A stretch of 64,000 bases of DNA, taken from the NCBI GenBank assembly GCA_039545335.1, contig BCIN01000003.1, positions 1,054,001 through 1,118,000 on the forward strand. Reading direction: 5' to 3'. Under the pieces are notes generated by a model that worked only from the letters and a program-made list of their open reading frames with translations, was not told where the DNA came from and did no database searches. The number at the start of each line of letters is the position of its first letter. Position 1 is the stretch's first letter. Source of the DNA: Kondoa subrosea (lineage: Eukaryota). The translations under genes and the position numbers were made by a program. Positions 6,191-62,000 of this stretch are shown here, piece after piece.

Positions 6191-6371
6191 CTTGCAGCTG
6201 GTCTAGAAGGTCAATTTATGTCCAACACAGTAGAGTAGAGTAGATGAAGACTATCGGAGGCGAGAAGGGTGTGCTGGAGCAAGAACAACATGCTTGAGCA
6301 ATCTCAGCGAAATATCACGACTTGGATGATTCCCGCTGTGCCTGCTTGATCTTTATACCTCTGCGCTTGTG

Positions 6372-9300
6372 ATGACTGAAGCCATCAATACCCTAGGGGA
6401 TGAATTGCGGACTCGCACACAACCGCTTGAAAGTGATACCTTCGCTTCTGCCCTGTCCACGCTTCAGACTGGTCTCTCTTCCTCCAACAGTCACATCGTT
6501 ACTGCAAGCATTGGATGTCTCCTTCATTTCTGGCCTTTGATCGATTCCAACGCGTCCTTACTCAAAGCTATAAACTTGTTGATCAAGGGTTCACTCATGG
6601 ATAAATTGGGTGATTCAAACAAGAGAATCAGGGATCTTGCTGGCCGAGCATTGTTGGTAACGGGCAAGACTTGTCTGAATTTCCAAACAAGTGAAGATGC
6701 GTCATTGAAGACTTTGGAGAGCATAGTCAAAGATCAAGGTTTCTCTTCCAAACAAGCTAGAACAAGAGAATCATGCTTGGTGTACCTTCGCGAAATAAGG
6801 AAAGACAACCCTGACCTTCCACTGAAACAATGGGTTCCTTGTCTTTTAGCAACATTGGAAGATTCAGATTCTCAAGTTAGGGAAACAGCAAGGGACACTG
6901 TGGTAGTCATTTTTGCCGATCCTGCAGTTCCGGAAGCAGCAAGAGCTGATTTAAAGAAAGAATTGTCGAAACATAGTATCAGAGGAGCGGAAGAGTTGAT
7001 TGCTGGGCTATTAGCTGCACCGAAAGAATTAGGCTTAGGAGTACCTGAAGGGACTCCCAGCGCAAGCAACCGGACAGCAAGTACTACCAGTATAGTTTCC
7101 GCAGTTGGCACCCCACTCGATTCGGTACAAACAGTCTATGTGCGTGAAGTATCAAATTTGTGCAATTCAGCACTAGAATTTTGGTCTCATCACGTACAGA
7201 TTGCCTCACCTAAAGATATGGAGTCAGAATTTGCAGCAATGACTGAATCTTTTGCCGGCAAAGAAACAGAGCATAACTGGATTCCGCGCGACAAATACAT
7301 CAACCGGATAAGAGGTAAGCTTAACCCAGCATTAATTGCTCTCCGGCTGACATGTATCTCAGGCATGCTCAAAAGTGACGCTCATGTCACATATTTGGAC
7401 TCGTTTCTAGCTGGCCTTAAGCTAGTAATGGATGATATCCTTAAAATCGTTAGCTGAATTTCCCATCTTCTATACATTCGGCTCACTGCGTAAATAGTCA
7501 ACTTCTCTCCGTACAACGCTAGCTACAGCGACATGCAATCTCCTAGGCGAATTAGCTGAACATCTTAAAACCTCTCTCGACCCTTTCTACGAATCAGCAC
7601 TCAATGCTCTACTAAAGATCGCAGCTCAAACAAAGAAATTAGTCGTTCAAGCTTCAGAAGTCGCCATGGGCTTACTTATCGCTCATTGTTCCTATTCTTA
7701 CAAAGGCTTGAATCTTCTTTGGGAGGGTATGCAAGCCAAACCTATATCTATCCGTCAAGCTTCTGCTGTACATACCAAAACGATGCTCAGCACACATGGC
7801 GAATCAGCCAAGACAGCAATAGAAACTACAGGCGGTCTAGCTGTCTTCGTGAAGATCTTGCAGAAAGGTATAACGGATCCTACTGCAGGAGTAAGGGAAG
7901 CTTCAAGGGCAGCGTATTGGGTCTTCTCACCTCTTTGGCCAAAAGAAGCTCAGCAATTATTGGATGGCTTAGATCCAGCTGTTCGGTCTCAAGTACAAAA
8001 ATCAGTCAATGGATTAAATTCGAGCACTTCGAAACCTGATACATCTAAACGACCTTCCGTAAGAGCGATGATTGCAGCAAAGAAGTCAACCGCTCCGGCT
8101 ACGTCTTCACCACCTATCAAACCGAGAGCTAGTCCACCTTCGGCAGCATCGAGTACTTCTACATCTCCTCCATCACAAACAACTCACAGTCGTATTTCCT
8201 CTACCTCCACTATAAAAACAGCTAATGGATCACCTTCTTCTCGGCAATCAATATATTCTCGCGCAAGAACAAGTACAGCATCAACTATCGATGTCTCCTC
8301 TGCATCAGCCAGGGGAAGAGCAGAATCAGCAAGCTCTTCTCGTTCGGCTGCCTCAAGCAGGGAATCGCCCCCACAAGCTCGTCAAACAGTACCCAAATCC
8401 CGTCCCGCGTCTATTCAGCAAAGCCCGTCAATGAAGAAAGGCCCTATTACACCAACTGCTAAACGAGTGTCAGTGCAAAGACAACAATCAGACGATTTGG
8501 ATGCTGCTTCATTACCTTCTTCGCAGTCAGATCAAGATCAAATGGACGCTTCTTTCGATGGAGGAATGGTAGAAGCAGCAATGGCTTCACAAGCATCTCA
8601 AGCCGAACAAGCAGCTGAAAGATTGTTAGAATTAGTTGAAGAAGATCCTGTAACTCCGGTCAAGAAGAGTTTATTAGATCGCCTCAAAGGAATGCAGTTG
8701 AAAGATCAGGAGTTGAAAAATAGTCCTGCTGAGAAAGAAGAGAAACCCTGGAGCTACGAAGACGAGCTCGGTGTTCATTCTTGGTGGCTTGCTTCGACGG
8801 AACGTGAGTACTTAGCTCTACGTACCGAATTCCCTCGCTGATCTTTTCTGCTCTAGTGAAAGAGATGCCCGAGGCTCTGAACACTTCAACACCTGAAGAC
8901 TTGCAGATCATAGATAGCCTGATCGATGCTCTGGCGAAGGGAACACTTGAGCGAGAATCAATATTGCGATTGCGCCGTCTTTCAGCAGATCACGATGTTT
9001 CAGACGGAGCAGCGAAAGCAACGCCGGATTTAAATCAGCAATTTTGGACGAAGAACAAACTTTTCAATAGGCTGTTCATGGCCATACAGGAAATTCTGAA
9101 GTTACCAGTAAGCTTCCACCTATAGTGCATTCAATTAGACTCTGAGGGATTTCCAGAGCGACGATAACGTAGCTGGACCTACTATCGCACAACTTGAAGC
9201 TGCTTTGGCACTGCTGAAAGATCTAGTAGTACATGAAGCTACTCTGTTTTCGGGCCAAGAGATTGCAATGTTTTCTCTACTTTTGAATATTCCAGTCCAT

Positions 9301-46329: not shown

Positions 46330-47160
46330 TTAAACAGAGAAAGCGATAGCGGAATCATCAACTCCTGCAGGTCCAGCAGAAGTAATGAAGCGTCCTCTTT
46401 GTTGACCTTGTTGAGGGATAGGCAGAGGTAAACCATCTTCCGCAGCTACTCGGTTCATGATTTCGCTCAAGCCTTGAGAAGTGGTTTGACGAGCTTCTGT
46501 TGTCAGCAGGTGCGGGAGAGCAAGGAAGTGGGTGTCTGAGAAAGAAAGCAGCAGAAGGACAACGCACCGGTGTAGACTCTTTCCATGTCTTTCTTCAATT
46601 CTTGCGCTGCGGTCGGAAGGTGAGTACATTATCTGAGACATAGACTGCAGAACTAACCGTGTCCACCTCTGTCCTTGTTCAATCGACCAATAGCATCAGC
46701 AATAGCAGAATAGGTCTCCTAGCATGATCATCAGAAGGGAAACAAGAGAAATAAAGAAAGCAAACGAAGAACTCGCCCAAGCAGCTCAAAAGACCCATGT
46801 ACGCATGATTAACAGCTTGTCGATCTTGCTCGTAAGCTTCTATTCCGCGTTTCATGATAGCCAATCTGTTATTGACAACCAAATTGGACTTCTTCATGCA
46901 CGAGAGCTGGAGAGAAGAAGGGCTTACCGATTAGCATACATCTCTTCAATCGCAGCTTGTAAAGCGGCTGGATGTTCTTGAGCTACTTTGTTTGCGTGTG
47001 TAAGGATCTTCTTCTGCTTGGTCTTGCGTTGCTTGCTTTGCATCTGCTCATAGACTGTGGTAAGCAAATGTAAGACAGACAACGCGGGACTCTTTACTTG
47101 TTGGATCTGTCCCATAAGGGCTGCGAAGTCTGGAGCGGTCTCTTCATCTGATGAGGACAT
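46330..47160 (-). CDS. Hypothetical helical protein, multi-exon (3' end uncertain)
   Basis: ATG 47160 MSSSDEETAPDFAALMGQIQQ, followed by helical exons joined by short introns; no recognisable family. Confidence 0.55.
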
Positions 47161-47513
47161 GTTTGCAGATCTTGAAGTCGTGGTCGAGAGAGAAAGTCGG
47201 AAGTGTGTTACTCGCGAAATTGAGCGATACAGAGGCAACAAAAGCTTGAACACAAACCGTGACTGATTGCGCATCATCAAACGCTCTTGATAGTGTCTCG
47301 AGCGTTCATCTCGCGTGTGGCTTGTGCACAGACCCTCTGGCACTTGTGCGAGCGCTAAAATCTGCATAATGCTCTCTTTGCTCGAGCTACGTTTCTCGCT
47401 TGCTGCTGCTGCAGTGCTGCCTGCTACTCGAGGACCTCTCTATAACTAGACTTCACACACTGCCTCCGTTCATCACTTGATTTTCTGTGCAATCCAATCT
47501 CTTTTTCTGAAAT

Positions 47514-49486
47514 ATGGTCGCTTCTTCCGTTACCATACATTGCGGTCAAGCAGGTAATCAAGCTGCTCTGGAATACTGGCATCAAATACTGCAAGGCAAG
47601 GTTCTATATGCGCACAAAGCGAGTCACAGCTTATTTACCAAGTCACCTGACAGAGCATCAGATAGATAATCAAGGCTTTTACCATGGCTCAAGGGATTAC
47701 GAGCTCGAACGAATTGCAGTCAATTTCTCAGAAACAGAGAATAAGCGTTTCGTTCCTCGAGCACTCAATATAGATCTAGAACCTGGAACTATTGCTGCAA
47801 CCAAAGCTAGCGATTTGGGTTCACTCTTCAAGCCTGATTCCTATATATGGGGTCAGAGTTCAGCAGGCAACAATTTTGCGAAAGGTATGGCTTATTTGGG
47901 AACCGGTCGAATTATGCTGATCTGTATAATTAGGGTACTATACGGAAGGAGTCAGTCCGCATTATCTGGCACAATCTGCCACTGATTATGATACAGGCGG
48001 AACATGTCGAGCAAAGCCTGGAAGTAATCCGAAAAGAAGCAGAGGGCTGCGATTTGCTGCAAGGCTTTCAAATGATTCACAGCGTCGGAGGCAAGTGTAA
48101 TCCAATTGATCTGAGTGACTATACTTAGACTAGCTGCAGGCGGGACAGGAAGCGGTATGGGTACTTTGATTCTGGATAAGCTGCGAGAAGAATTTCCAGA
48201 TCGCATGCTTTGCACCTATGTTTGTCTTCTGTTGTTCTGGAGACGTCAATCTCTGATGCTTCTTTGAGCAGTCCATTCTTCCTTCGCCGAATATGGGCAG
48301 CGACACTGTAACGGAACCCTATAACACCATCTTAGCGCTACATCGCCTGATAGAGACATCAGACATGACTTGTCAGTCATTCTTCGTTATTCGCTGTGTC
48401 AAGAGCTGACGATAGAAAATGCACCATTGACAGTCGCCTTCGATAATGATGCGCTATATGAAATTCAGACAAATCAGCTCAAAAACAAGAGTCCCACTTT
48501 TGCGAATCTCAACAAGTTGATCGCTCAGGTAAAGCTAGATTTCACATTGTATCCTGTATGTTTGTCCTGAATTCGGCTTTACAGGCTATTTGCGGCGCTA
48601 CTGCTTCTCTACGCTTCCCAGGTCAACTCAATTCCGACCTGCGCAAAATGGCAGTCAACTTGGTTCCCTTTCCTCGATTGCATTTCTTCAGCACAGCTTT
48701 TGCTCCATTTTCATCCGAAGGAGGTAAAGCTCATAGCCTCACAAAAATCCCCGATCTTGCGCAACAGCTTTTCAACCCCACTAATCAGATGGTTGCTGTG
48801 AGTTTTGGGTACACTCTGCCATTAATTGCGCTGAAATGGACCTGCCACTCCCACAGTGTGATCCACGCTTGGGCAAATATCTCACTGCTTATGCCGCCTT
48901 TCGAGGGAATAATCTATCTCACTATGAATTGGAAGAAGCAAGTCAGTCGTGCTGAACGAAACTATTATATGGAATCTGACGAGATCCTACTAGTGACCGC
49001 GATTCAAGAACGCAATCATGATTACTTTGTCAACTTCTCGAGCGTTTCTCACAGTCAAAGTGATGTTGGCGCTCCAGGTCTCAAAGTAAGTCTGCAATCC
49101 CTTTCGCAAACACAGCTGATGACATTAGCACAGTTATCTGCTACGTTGATCGGTAACTCTACTTCGATGAAAGACGTTTTGGCTCGAACTGCAGACCAAT
49201 TTCAAGCTATGTTCAAACGAAGAGCTTTCGTTCATTGGTTCTCGGCTGAAGGAATGGATGATATGGAGATGCACGAAGCTAATGAGAATGTCTTGGATTT
49301 GATTCGGGAGTATCAAGCTTGTGAGTGTTTCTGTCATTCAGCTCAATGAGCTGTAGTGATACGAAGCCCACAGATGAAATCGATGGAGAAGAAGAAGAGG
49401 AAGAACTTGAGGAGGAATACCCAGCAAATGAAGGAGCAGATCAATCACAATCACCGATGACGCGAAGTAATATATCTATCATTTGA
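47514..49486 (+). CDS. Highly divergent beta-tubulin paralog
   Basis: [89 protein letters not shown], acidic tail. Confidence 0.92.
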
Positions 49487-56073: not shown

Positions 56074-59000
56074 ATGCCACCCCTGCCTACTCTGTCTCGT
56101 CCTGCCTCGTCCAGTAGCCTACATATGAGTTCTTCTCCATCCAGTCAAAGCTTAACCGGAACTGCTAACGGTACAAGCGTTCAAGTTGGTATGTCCTAGC
56201 GTTACTCAACATGCACAGGCAGCAAGGCTGATGATACAATGCGATAGCGCTTCGTATACGACCTCCTTTAACTCCTGAGCAGTCTGCAAATGTACCAGCA
56301 CGCTTTCAACGCTCTGTTGTTTCTCAAGTACCAGGCTCCGAGACTTCTCTGGTTGTTGAATCCTCTTCAGCTGGCCCAAGAGAGTCTTCTGTTACATCAC
56401 CTACTAAAGCAGGCGGGAACAAGCAATACTTCAGCTTTGATCGAGTATTTGGCCCCGAATCTGGTCAAGCGGAATTATTCAGCATGGCAGAAGGAATGGT
56501 GCATCGTTTTGTGGAAGGCTACAATGTCACTATCCTAGCTTACGGTCAAACAAGCTCTGGCAAATCATATACTATGGGGACAGATCATGTTGATGCTGAA
56601 GAGCTGGAAGATGAGAACGATAGATTAGGCATTATTCCTCGTGCCGTTGGAATGGTCTTTGATAGATTGGCGAAACTTGCGAAAGAGAGCAAGGGAAGCT
56701 TTTCGTATCAAATCAAGAACAGCTATATCGAGTTATATAATGAAGAACTCATTGACTTGCTCGCTACTGATGTAGAAGATCGACCTCAAGTTACTATCCG
56801 CGAAGATAAAGGTCTTATTGTCTGGTCTGGACTACGTGAAGTCAAAGTCAACAGCGCAATGAATGTCATGAACAATCTCGAACAAGGTTCTTCAGTCCGT
56901 CAAACCAATGCAACAGATATGAACGCTCAATCTTCTCGCTCGCACGCTATCTTTTCTCTCACTCTCACTCAAAAGAAATATACCGGCTCTCAGCCACCGG
57001 CTTCGCCTGCTATGCCTAGTAGTCGACTAGCAACTCCCCGAACTTCCATTTCTGGTCTACCTCGAGTTTCTTCGCCAAGTCCTGGAACAAGACCATCTAC
57101 TCCTAGTTCAAGTGACAGACCTGCCAGCAGATTCGGATTGCGTCCTGCCAGCGCGATGGGAAACGGTCGAATCAGTCCTGGTCCGAATGCTCTGGAAGAG
57201 ATAGCTAGTACCAAAGAGACGAAAGAAGATGGTGGATGGGTAACGGTCACCAGCAAATGGCACTTTGTCGATCTTGCTGGCTCGGAAAGGGTGAGTGGTT
57301 TGACCAGCGATATGCGTTTCAAGCTCAGTTTGTTGTCACCTGGTTCACAGCTCAAACGCACTTCCGCTATGGGCGAACGAGTCAAAGAAGGCATCAGCAT
57401 CAACTCAGGTCTACATGCTTTAGGCAATGTTATTTCAGCTTTGGGAGATCCAGCTAGAGCAAGACAAACCACTCATATCCCTTATCGAGACTCTAAGCTT
57501 ACTCGCCTGCTGCAAGACTCGCTCGGAGGCAATGCTCATACGCTTATGATTGCTTGCGTCAGCCCAACAGAATTCAATGTGAATGAAACTATCAATACTC
57601 TCAAATACGCAAATCGAGCTCGAAATATCAAGAATTCTGCAAGTATCAATGAAATCGAAGTTGGCTGGCAGGTAAATAATTTCGGTTGACAACTCTGTGA
57701 CTAGGGTTGATCGGAAATTGTCTTAAAGGATCTGGATCACTTACAAGCATTAGTCATCAAACTTCGATCAGAGCTCGCTTCCATTCGCTCAGGAAGTATG
57801 GAAACGATTACTGAAGAACGTTCCAATGGCTTTGGTCTTCCGGCAACCATTTCCTCGAATGCTCAAGTACTTGAATTACAAGATCGCTTTGCTGAACTTT
57901 CGCAAAAGTATGCCAAACTAACAGCAGAAATGGCTAAGCAAAAGCTACCTCCTCGAAACTCCACTCCTACTCCTGGCGGACGAATACCGAGAGCGTCTTT
58001 GTCTCCTGAAGATTTCGCAATGGCTGTCGAGCCTGTAGTAGAAGAATACGAGAAATCGCTATCGGCAGTCGAAAGTCAACTTTCGCTCACTCGAGCTGCT
58101 TTGGCTCATACCGAAGATGCGCTCAAATCACAAGAAGATCTTATTAACGCTGCCAGGATCGAAAGTGAAGTCAATCAGCAAACTATCGAAGAGCTCAAGA
58201 ACAGAGTAGAGAAACTTGCGCAAAGAGAACATGTCGCTGAAACTTATGTTCGGTCTTTGGAAGACCGAATCACAGCTAGTGATGATGGAGGCGATACGCA
58301 TTTGAACACTATTGCCGAACTCAAGAAGGAGATCGCAAGGCTGAAAGAATCTGAAGCCAATGGCGACAAATACATCAAGGATCTGGAAACACGATTGGCA
58401 AACAATGACGATACTGTTGCCGGTCTCAAAGGCCAGATCGACTCCATGGAAAGGGACATTCATCGAAGGGAAGAAGCTTACAAAGAACTCGAGAACCGAC
58501 TTAGTCTACTTGATACTACTGTTGAGCACCGCACTCTTCTTCATGAGATGGATCACCGAGAGAAGAGATTGCTGCAGCTCGAGCGCGACATGGACGCTTT
58601 GAACCTTGAAAAAGAGGAAGTCGTACGCGATAATGAACGTCGCCAACAGCTGATCGAGCAAGAAAAGCAAGAGAAAGCTCTTCTGCAAATCAAAATAGAT
58701 CAGCTTGAGGAAGAGATCGCGACAGCTAGAACTACCGAACGGTCCCGCTCAATTTACCTGACCGCTGAAAGTCTAAAGAGCTCCACACCGCCGTCTCCGA
58801 CACATAGAAGCGCCCAAGATACAGCGGCAGCTGACGATCCAGCCGAAAAGTTGCGCTTGCTAGAGGGTCGATATCAAGCCACTGTCCAGGAACTTGAATC
58901 AGTCAAAGCGAAATATCGGGATTCAATCCTTGAGCTAGAAGAGCTGTCTCAAGAGTTGCAAGACAGCAAGCTTGCAAAAGAAGAAGAACGCGATATCATT

Positions 59001-62000
59001 TTAACGCCTAGAACTTCCATCGAGCACTTGTCGCCGGCGCGAGCGCGTCCTTCGGCGTCTCGTGAAGATCTCAGGGCGCTTTCTTCTACCACTATCCCTC
59101 TTTCGCCTTCTCGGAATCGTAGAAGCTTACCCATCGGCTCTCCGAACCGTTCAAATTCTTTTCGTGGGGGAGCTGTGCTACCTGCACAATCTTTATCGCA
59201 TTCGCGATCTATATCATTGTGAATGATGCTCTTTAATATGCAATTTTCCATTCTGACTTCTATTGCTTCATAGGTCGCAGGAGCTACAGGCAGCGCAGGG
59301 CTCGCTCCTTGGCTCACAGCTCTCCCCAAGCCCATCTCGACCTGTATCACCCAATCCTTCGAGAGAGTCGCTATCTTCTGGAGCGAATATGTTCCACAAA
59401 GAGCGGAGCTATGAAAGTCTCACACAAGAAGTTGCTCAACTCCAATCAGGTTAGCACTAAATCTGTATTCCGAGCTTCACTGAATTGGGATTGCCTAAGT
59501 TTTGACAAATCGCGAGTCTGAAATTGCAGAACTGGAAGAAGAACTTCGTACTCTGAAGTTAGGAGATGTTGTTCCGCTCGAGCATACGACGGTGCTGGCA
59601 CCCATTCGCACCAGTCGTCCCTCTTCGCCTGAGGGTGATACAATGCCTGGCATGCGATCATTGACTCCAGGGCAAGTCGCCGGTGATAAATTTATTTGTC
59701 TGTTGTCTGATATTCTGATTGTTAGGACTCTTGATGCCTTCAATACTCTTAGAAATCAGATCGCCGACGGAGAAGATCAGCTTCATGTTGATAGCGCTGC
59801 ACGGCTGGATGATCTGATGCGATCTATGGCCCAAAAAGAAGCTACGCACCGCGAACATATCGAGCGCTCTAGTGAGGCTCTGAGTGCTTTGACGAGAGAG
59901 CATGACGCTCTGCGGAAATTCTCCACAGATCAAGTATTTAATATGTCTCAAGAAATCGAACAATTGAAACTCCAGCTGGACACCAGTCTATCCTCTGCCA
60001 ACGAAACCGCTGATCGTCTTCAAACATTAGAGAAAGAGCTTGCCACCAAAGAAGCAGAATTGGCTTCTCTCGATTCTAGGAGCAAAGTTGCTCTCGCTGC
60101 AACCACAGAGCGCCTAGCTCTAGATCATGCTCAAGCAATTCAGAATCAGCGATCGGATTTTGACCGAGAACTCCAAACAATCCAGCAAGATCATGCTCTT
60201 GTTCTGTGCCGTATGATTGAAGAGCGTGAAGTATTGTTCGTGCAGAAGATGCGCGAACACGAAGATGCGATCCGTGCTATGGAATCTAAACAGACCGAGG
60301 AATTAGTTCAGAACATGAATGAGCAAGCCTTGCAACTGGCTGAGATAGAGGCAGCTCATGCTTCAAACGTCAATGCGCAAGCGGCAGACCTCAGGAACCT
60401 TCAAGCGCGGCTGGACCTGATGACACAAGATAAATCCGAGACGGCTTCGGCTAGCAAAGTCATTGCAGATCTCAACGCACAACATGATTCTCATCTTAAT
60501 TTGAAGGAAGAAGCCTTTGCTCGACAAATGGAGCAAGTGCTCAATCTTGAAAGAAGCTGCGCGCAAACTTCAGCTAACAGATATAAATCGGAAATCGCTC
60601 GATTACAAGAACTGCACAATATGGCTGCGTCCGAGGCCGCTCAAAAGCACGACGAAGAGCTGAAGATACTTCGCGACACTCATACTGATGAATTGAATAT
60701 TGTTAAGCAAGCTCATCAGCAGGAGCTCGACAAAGCATTAATTCTCCACTCACAAACGCTTTCCGAAAAGGAGTCTACCCTATTGGCAGAGCGCCATCTC
60801 CTCTCTTCTGAACTCGACTCCTTGCGCCGAGATTATAATGAACAGATCAGTAAAGCTGGAACAATAAGCGAAGGCGGTCACTCGTCGTTACAGTCTCGAG
60901 TGAACCAACTAGAATCAGAACTAGAGGCCCTGGAAGACAATGCAACTGCTACACAGACATCGGAAACGGAATGGCAGAAGAAGGTGACTTCTTTAGAAAA
61001 TGCTTTGAAAGAGAATGAAGCGATTTTGCAAGAAGCGATTGCCGAGATTGCCCAAGTCCGTTACTTTCTACTGATCTTACTGAGCTTGGAACTGAACTGA
61101 CCTGATGTATGTTCTATAGAGACACAAAGATGACCTGCAGGCTCGTCTGTCTGAGCAGACAGAACAGCATGACCACGCGCTCGCTTCTCTTGCGCAAGAG
61201 CATACTTTCAAACTTAATGAACTTCAGCAATCTCATAGTATCTCGCTCGAGCAGCAGAGGCAACAACATAGTCGAGCGCCGGAGTCCTTGCAGTCCTCCC
61301 ATACTAAAACTAACGGCTTGGACGCATCCATCACCACTCTGGCATCGGAACGAGATAATCTTGCTGCTAAGCTCCCAGAACACGAGGAGAAGGCGGTACA
61401 GCGAGAACATCTGCAAGTTGAAGCTGAATCGTTACGAAAAGCTCTGGCTAGCTCTCAAGCGGAATTGACGAGGATGAGTGAAGCTCGCAAAGTCTTGGAA
61501 GCCGAAAGCACTCGTCAGAAGAATACCATCTCCTCGCTGGAGGAACATCGCTCGTCCATGAACTTTGCAAGCTCTCCGAGAAGTGCTGGAGAAGAGACGC
61601 CTGATATGACTCGGTCCTCGTCTGAAGCTTCATCTGGCGAGCTCGACCAGCTCGAGCTGCAGAACAGACGAAGTCAGTTCGCAGTGACTCGCCTACGATC
61701 AAGCTCTTCTGTCAAAGGGCCCATTCCAGCCGGCCCGCCGCCCTCGAAGTGAGTACATCTTTTGGTGATTTGAGCAATTTTAATCTCATTGCGTAGTCCG
61801 CCTCCACCACCTCCTGCTCTTGCTGGACTTCCTCATCTATCCAACGGCCGTACAAGAACACCGGATGCCCGAGACTCTATTTCCAGTAGTGCTGGATCAA
61901 TCACACCCAACTCATCAACTGCGGATGCCCGTTCATCAATAAACAGCATCTCGACAACCGAACCTGCCAACTTTGATACTAAGACGCAGCGCAGAATGGA

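Follow-up and report, generated by a model that had tools for sequence, protein, structure and literature searches.

A highly divergent beta-tubulin gene of Kondoa subrosea, a probable extreme member of the basidiomycete beta2 class

Few eukaryotic proteins are as conserved as beta-tubulin. The closest described systems are set out in parts of a comparative study (Zhao et al., 2014, Sci Rep 4:6746, PMC5381371), according to which every basidiomycete studied carries two or more beta-tubulin genes, which fall into two clades, beta1, which is conserved, and beta2, whose branches are "remarkably long". In the same parts of that text, beta1 is under strong purifying selection and beta2 under divergent and positive selection, and the extra beta-tubulins of Yarrowia lipolytica and Galactomyces geotrichum cluster with beta2 (PMC5381371). 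Tub1 and Tub2 of Fusarium graminearum are given there as two functionally diverged beta-tubulins, tested experimentally and both of the beta1 type (PMC5381371). At the level of titles and abstracts on beta2-tubulin in basidiomycetes, we found no work on the class beyond Zhao et al. (2014), and no experimental study. The gene considered here lies on the plus strand of a 64,000-nucleotide stretch of the Kondoa subrosea genome (contig BCIN01000003.1 of assembly GCA_039545335.1, positions 1,054,001 to 1,118,000). We refer to this whole stretch as the window, and all coordinates are positions in it. Taken as a whole, the explanation that we consider probable is that this is a functional beta-tubulin gene of the basidiomycete beta2 class, whose product would be a minor isotype of the microtubule lattice, with a beta1 gene elsewhere in the genome. 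It is a new and extreme member of a class already described, not a new system.

Identity, placement and divergence of the protein

By its sequence, the product of the gene is a beta-tubulin. Exon 2 alone matches Pfam PF00091 (Tubulin, 35.9 bits against a cutoff of 33) and exon 8 alone matches PF03953 (Tubulin_C, 38.4 bits against a cutoff of 26.6). Solved structures were searched with the two exons separately, and beta chains account for 60 of the 60 matches listed in each search (4ffb_B and 5w3f_B are among the solved examples matched). The initial annotation of this DNA, made from the letters and their open reading frames (ORFs), had described a beta-tubulin with the beta core, and the G-box, the beta-type Lys of the T7 loop, the S8/H8 motif and the acidic tail are all present. 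The G-box (GGGTGSG) is intact, given the GC donor of intron 4 discussed below; the T2 loop and H8 are kept, and the T7 loop is unchanged. The Lys at the T7/H8 position marks beta, alpha-tubulin having a catalytic Glu there. With canonical beta1 proteins of the yeast Tub2 and Aspergillus benA type, the window protein shares the fold family, the beta-type motifs and an acidic C-terminal tail; its own C-terminus consists of a Glu-rich acidic run and then a non-acidic extension of about 20 residues.

Lacking is an N-terminus of the MREI type, a typical but not absolute feature of the tubulin family. The start is different from the canonical one and one residue longer. The loss of MREI that the initial annotation reported is real, but the link that it drew to autoregulation is described for animal cells only in the parts of a review that bear on it (PMC12868001), in which the words "yeast" and "fungi" do not occur.

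Trees were built with IQ-TREE (LG+C20 PMSF), one with 34 rows and one with 24 rows that include the two ortholog fragments described below. In both, the window protein falls inside a clade that we call beta2-like (support 98/95 with 34 rows and 99/97 with 24 rows). The other members, which are also its nearest sequences, are proteins of Thecaphora frezii (P0048), Tilletiopsis washingtonensis (P0083), Phenoliferia psychrophenolica (RQP46_001649, P0057), Rhodosporidiobolus azoricus (JCM11251_002408, P0115) and R. ruineniae (JCM8097_004856, P0099). These five proteins are 61-68% identical to canonical ascomycete beta-tubulin, and the two canonical copies of Wallemia fall among the conserved tubulins. 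This grouping fits the beta2 class of Zhao et al. (PMC5381371). A phylogeny with branch lengths was among the checks proposed in the initial annotation, and it places the window protein on a long branch within the beta2-like clade: its end branch is 1.32 in the 34-row tree, and in the 24-row tree the path from the base of the clade is about 1.27 changes per site for the window lineage versus 0.43-0.61 for the other five. Since the window row is a long branch, indels and substitutions were checked as characters that are less exposed to long-branch attraction. A one-residue insertion after canonical position 320 and substitutions at positions 6 and 12 agree with the beta2-like placement. The earlier statement that several basidiomycete lineages carry a second, faster-evolving beta-tubulin is borne out by the relevant parts of Zhao et al. 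(PMC5381371), and it applies to this gene through its place in the clade.

The divergence from housekeeping beta-tubulins, called extreme in the initial annotation, is confirmed. Among the 120 beta-tubulins of the first search, the best identity is 54.9% (alignments of at least 416 residues), and identity to canonical beta-tubulin is about 52%. For comparison, the canonical ascomycete protein shares 78-82% identity with its canonical counterparts in Wallemia (a basidiomycete), a plant, Paramecium and Symbiodinium, so that at most 55% stands against about 80% among canonical proteins across kingdoms. Across 71 aligned near-full-length rows, 184 columns are conserved (at least 95% among 57 canonical-like rows). 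The window protein departs at 43 of them, versus 18-25 for the five other beta2-like proteins, and 22 of the 43 departures fall where all five keep the canonical residue. Under a looser gap rule it departs at 64 of 231 columns (25 of 110 in the N-terminal domain, 28 of 88 in the intermediate domain and 11 of 33 in the C-terminal domain). Many of the substitutions are conservative (Asp/Glu, Lys/Arg, Trp or Tyr to Phe). On these alignments, chance falls far short of explaining the difference from canonical beta-tubulin.

The window protein is also set apart from the beta2-like proteins that it groups with. It shares with them a supported clade, a long branch and substitutions at positions 6, 12 and 198, but is only 54-55% identical to them, whereas the red-yeast and smut members are 61-66% identical to each other and identities within groups are 68-89%. 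A word search of protein collections with exon 2 gave eight matches among 63 candidates, the best of them 51% identical, and we therefore find no close annotated ortholog. The product of the window gene itself has no 100% match among the protein-collection matches of the exon 2 and exon 8 word searches.

The individual departures listed in the initial annotation were all recovered: Phe for Trp in the T3 loop, Asp for Glu at position 205, a two-residue deletion, two one-residue insertions and the tail extension. Some are common to the beta2-like clade. At position 6 (Thr or Ser) and position 12 (Ala) the window protein agrees with all five beta2-like rows; the T1 loop is kept, with Ala in place of Cys12. 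Three of the five also have Phe for Trp in T3. The extra residue after position 320 is common to the three red-yeast members (P0057, P0099 and P0115) and to the ortholog fragment P0014. At position 198, encoded in exon 6, the window protein and P0014 have Met, the five beta2-like rows Leu or Met, one canonical Wallemia copy Leu, and the ascomycete and plant rows Glu. Changes at this position lower benzimidazole binding, and beta2-type tubulins may be naturally less sensitive to these compounds.

Other changes are found in the window protein and in none of the five. It lacks the start of the Met-Arg-Glu-Leu type that they keep. The T5 loop has a one-residue insertion that is absent from all 14 other aligned rows. 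Two residues are deleted from the H10-S9 loop after canonical position 344, with loss of a Trp-Ile-Pro that is kept in nine of nine full-length comparison rows. At position 281 in the M-loop, Phe or Tyr is replaced by His, which P0014 also has. In H11-H12 there are about ten substitutions at positions where almost all full-length comparison rows, other beta2-like rows included, agree. T5 belongs to the plus-end longitudinal face of the subunit and the H10-S9 loop to the minus-end, intradimer face; the M-loop takes part in lateral contacts, and H11-H12 forms the surface for motors and microtubule-associated proteins (MAPs).

Several further sequences came up in these comparisons. An unnamed divergent pair (P0061 and P0095), whose members are 85% identical to each other and about 65% identical to canonical beta-tubulin, is sister to the basidiomycete beta2-like clade (94/97 with 34 rows, 81/95 with 24 rows). 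These may correspond to the extra beta-tubulins of Yarrowia and Galactomyces, the topology resembling the published one; the window protein instead lies inside the basidiomycete group. The F. graminearum rows are, unlike the window protein, much less divergent, being 82-90% identical to the canonical protein P0073. Three Wallemia proteins of 900-905 residues (P0006, P0007 and P0010) each hold two complete canonical beta-tubulin units, 78-82% identical to ascomycete beta-tubulin, and are probably tandem genes merged by gene prediction. Among 79 metagenome beta-tubulin loci, one (L003) shares 80-86% of its bases with other ascomycete-type loci and 74-76% with the remaining loci, and it also matches the conserved stretch of the window.

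Gene model, orthologs and selection

The gene extends over 47514-49486, and its 12 exons join into 1389 coding bases (462 codons) in an open frame that begins with the ATG at 47514 and has its sole stop, a TGA, at its end (Table 1). The ends given in the initial annotation, with a spliced frame open to the stop, were reproduced from the DNA and the exon joining. The 11 introns are 46-62 nt long, nine of them GT-AG and two GC-AG, and the splice sites fit the consensus.

We regard the start codon at 47514 as secure on this reading of the locus, because an in-frame TGA lies three bases 5' of it (47508-47510), no AG acceptor occurs from this TGA to 47548 (codon 12), and the fragment P0252 starts alike, with 13 of its first 16 residues identical to those of the window protein. 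An upstream exon that would supply an MREI start was considered and ruled out on the same three grounds (the in-frame stop, no acceptor before 47549 and the same unusual start in P0252).

All donor and acceptor pairs that keep the frame open were enumerated as splice alternatives. A GT-AG alternative for intron 1 (47601-47655) adds one residue and replaces the conserved Glu of a Glu-His pair; one for intron 4 (48097-48139, 43 nt) puts two residues into the invariant G-box. Both were rejected on conservation, and because each alternative breaks one of these conserved elements, the GC-AG model is preferred for both introns. P0252, which has no intron at the intron 1 site, shows the exact length and the Glu-His pair that the GC-AG splice predicts, and among the choices for intron 4 the GC-AG splice alone restores the G-box. 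Two GC-AG introns among 11 is a high share for one gene and may reflect a genome-wide habit of the organism.

Table 1. Coordinates of the beta-tubulin gene and of other features in the window
Feature	Position	Strand	Remarks
Exon 1	47514..47595	+	ATG start; non-MREI N-terminus and T1 loop
Intron 1	47596..47653	+	58 nt, GC-AG, donor GCAAGG
Exon 2	47654..47884	+	H1-S2 region to T3 loop; PF00091; 76% identity to P0252
Exon 3	47934..47950	+	17-nt micro-exon; P0252 runs into an intron at the donor position after it
Exon 4	47997..48090	+	H3 to first half of G-box
Intron 4	48091..48139	+	49 nt, GC-AG, donor GCAAGT
Exon 5	48140..48219	+	Second half of G-box and H4
Exon 6	48272..48371	+	T5 loop with one-residue insertion; H5
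Exon 7	48434..48528	+	T6 and beginning of H7; covered by ortholog fragment P0014
Exon 8	48585..48797	+	H7, T7 loop with beta-type Lys, H8, M-loop; PF03953; 77% identity to P0014
Exon 9	48857..48941	+	One-residue insertion after canonical position 320; P0014 runs into an intron at the next donor
Exon 10	48994..49085	+	H10 and H10-S9 loop with two-residue deletion
Exon 11	49134..49320	+	S10 to H12
Exon 12	49374..49486	+	Acidic tail, non-acidic extension, stop TGA 49484-49486
Spacer	47160-47513		About 350 bp
Divergent ORF	46924-47439	-	No Pfam match
Large kinesin	56235-61752	+	Four consecutive long ORFs
Kinesin motor ORF	56235-57689	+	Pfam Kinesin, E = 4e-94
CLASP-type regulator	6330-8841	+	Two adjacent ORFs

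Close relatives of the gene were found as two fragments from unannotated assemblies, each a single Logan contig (921 or 1163 bases). When exon 2 was searched exhaustively with HMMER against 1.84 billion representatives, 150 matches were listed, P0252 with 76% identity and 149 others with at most 54%. A word search with exon 8 gave P0014 at 77%, with the next best match at 66%. Compared with the window protein over their covered lengths, P0252 is 76% identical over 108 columns and P0014 72% over 132 columns. Together with the window protein, the two fragments make up a clade with 100/99 support, still within the beta2-like clade (99/97), and the stem of this smaller clade is 0.89 changes per site versus 0.24 for the window protein's own branch. 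Both fragments are as distant from canonical beta-tubulin as the window protein is (49-52% identity), and where they cover the gene they have the same odd N-terminus and the majority of the departures. The initial annotation had coupled two observations that would speak for something other than a specialised isotype, a sole beta-tubulin and equally divergent orthologs in relatives; the second of these is what the fragments provide. At the positions of window introns 3 and 9 the fragments run into introns, and they are without introns 1, 2, 7 and 8. Either introns have come or gone since these close relatives parted, or the fragments derive from RNA that was only partly spliced.

Three tests, all of them indirect, speak for purifying selection. 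The window protein and the fragments are identical at 99 of 118 canonical-conserved columns (84%) versus 78 of 122 variable columns (64%; Fisher p = 0.0007). Of 32 conserved columns at which the window protein departs, 26 are also changed in the fragment, 21 of them to the same residue. With about 23% of the residues changed by random substitution, the frame stays open in 0.4% of 20000 draws, and with about 41% changed it does so in none. Since two orthologs share the N-terminus and most departures, the divergence is old and under purifying selection rather than a sign of decay. The GC content at third codon positions (GC3) is 0.41, within the range of the neighbouring ORFs (0.32-0.43), and the gene therefore looks native.

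Probable role and competing explanations

That the gene is intact, under selection and part of the beta2 clade we consider very likely. Within beta2, the window copy is part of a sub-lineage whose rate of evolution is two to three times higher still. The protein should still bind GTP, as the T1, T3, T4, T6 and T7 elements are either preserved or show conservative changes only, and it would pair with alpha-tubulin as the non-catalytic beta partner. It may then enter microtubules, or a subset of them, as a minor isotype with altered contacts and an altered partner surface, the elements concerned being the T5 loop (one residue longer), the H10-S9 loop (two residues shorter), the M-loop (aromatic residue to His) and the H11-H12 surface. 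Housekeeping would then fall to a canonical beta1 gene at another place in the genome. We lean, with some reserve, towards co-polymerisation as a minor isotype. Tub1 and Tub2 of F. graminearum are a precedent for two fungal beta-tubulins that divide functions and partners in one cell. As for the specialised isotype proposed in the initial annotation, membership in a second-paralog class stands, through the clade placement, while a meiotic, spore-stage or non-lattice role finds no support.

Four points weigh against this picture of a beta2 isotype in the lattice. The long branch of the window row can mislead its placement. Its sister relation to the red-yeast rows (Phenoliferia and Rhodosporidiobolus) is weak, with support of 90/61 and 81/70. 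The label beta2-like denotes a position in the trees made here, not an entry in the gene list of Zhao et al. Ordinary incorporation into the lattice is not guaranteed either, given indels in loops of both longitudinal interfaces, an M-loop without its aromatic residue and about ten changed positions in H11-H12.

An alternative that we regard as unlikely is a neofunctionalised beta2 descendant that is no longer an ordinary lattice subunit and might instead make up a specialised polymer, serve at the spindle pole body as a cap or seed of microtubules, or regulate alpha-tubulin or motors in soluble form. The lineage-specific changes do concentrate in contact and partner surfaces (T5, H10-S9, position 281 and H11-H12), half or so of the departures from conserved columns (the 22 of 43 noted above) lie where the five other beta2-like rows all stay canonical, and the features are conserved in the orthologs where these cover them. 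On the other hand, the protein retains all nucleotide-binding elements, H8 and the beta-type T7 loop, many of its substitutions are conservative, and the roles of the loops are taken from textbook tubulin structure.

A stronger form of the same idea, which we also think unlikely and would entertain with yet more caution, is that this beta2 sub-lineage left the ordinary lattice role and represents a new functional class of eukaryotic tubulin, its features maintained by selection. On such a reading both longitudinal contact loops would have been re-tooled, the M-loop aromatic residue lost, the H11-H12 surface for motors and MAPs rewritten and the N-terminus of the nascent chain lost; a polymer of the spindle pole or of a particular stage, or a non-polymerising partner of alpha-tubulin, would be examples. 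The sub-lineage is so far known from the window genome and two short fragments of other assemblies.

It is improbable that the gene is the sole beta-tubulin of the organism, in a lineage that lost beta1 as a whole. The ortholog fragments are indeed equally divergent, and there is no second tubulin in the 64 kb of the window, where four beta-tubulin queries match this locus only. Against this, every basidiomycete covered in the cited parts of Zhao et al. has at least two beta-tubulin genes, beta1 being the strongly conserved one (PMC5381371), and the window protein is in the beta2-like clade, not with the conserved copies. Departures at 43 of 184 conserved columns would, we infer, be unprecedented for a sole beta-tubulin.

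Decay of a duplicate, that is, a young pseudogene whose frame is as yet uninterrupted, could account for the very long branch, the lost MREI N-terminus and the indels in conserved loops, but is highly improbable in view of a frame that is open across 12 exons with 11 usable introns, of divergence that is for the most part shared with the orthologs (stem versus own branch), of conserved columns that are kept better than variable ones, and of the finding that neutral drift of such size almost never leaves the frame open.

Genomic surroundings and implications

The locus is very compact. A short spacer separates the tubulin gene from a divergent ORF on the minus strand (Table 1), and the next plus-strand ORF begins only about 150 bp 3' of the tubulin stop. 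Neighbours of the gene encode a WD40 protein, a 2OG oxygenase, a reductase of the old-yellow-enzyme type and histidine phosphatases. A functional gene cluster was considered and rejected, the neighbours being unrelated in function to the tubulin gene.

Two other genes of the window are connected with microtubules. A large kinesin is encoded 7 kb downstream of the tubulin gene, its first ORF holding the motor domain. This motor ORF is at most 59% identical to any annotated protein, with best matches in Microbotryomycetes and Atractiella; the best matches are proteins of about 2000 residues named as kinesin family 4/7/21/27 or as KIP1-related. On the matches of the motor ORF, the source is a basidiomycete, probably one of the Pucciniomycotina, and has no close annotated relative. 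The kinesin tail looks coiled-coil, with weak, sub-threshold Pfam matches on one of its three ORFs. The second gene, 39 kb from the tubulin gene, has matches to CLASP N-terminal/TOG and HEAT domains and is a microtubule regulator of the CLASP type. We read the presence of three microtubule genes in 64 kb as coincidence.

The beta2 class has so far been described by comparative analysis only. If the window protein is simply a minor, co-polymerising isotype, its description would be a useful but ordinary annotation of an unannotated genome, and what makes it noteworthy is the conserved re-tooling of its contact loops. Such paralogs also confound beta-tubulin barcoding. Beta2-type paralogs also differ at residues involved in benzimidazole binding. 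A copy that has nearly half of its residues changed and yet remains under selection reveals which residues are dispensable in a working beta-tubulin, and an extreme member with conserved changes in its contact loops and motor surface would be a sharp probe for the function of beta2-tubulins.

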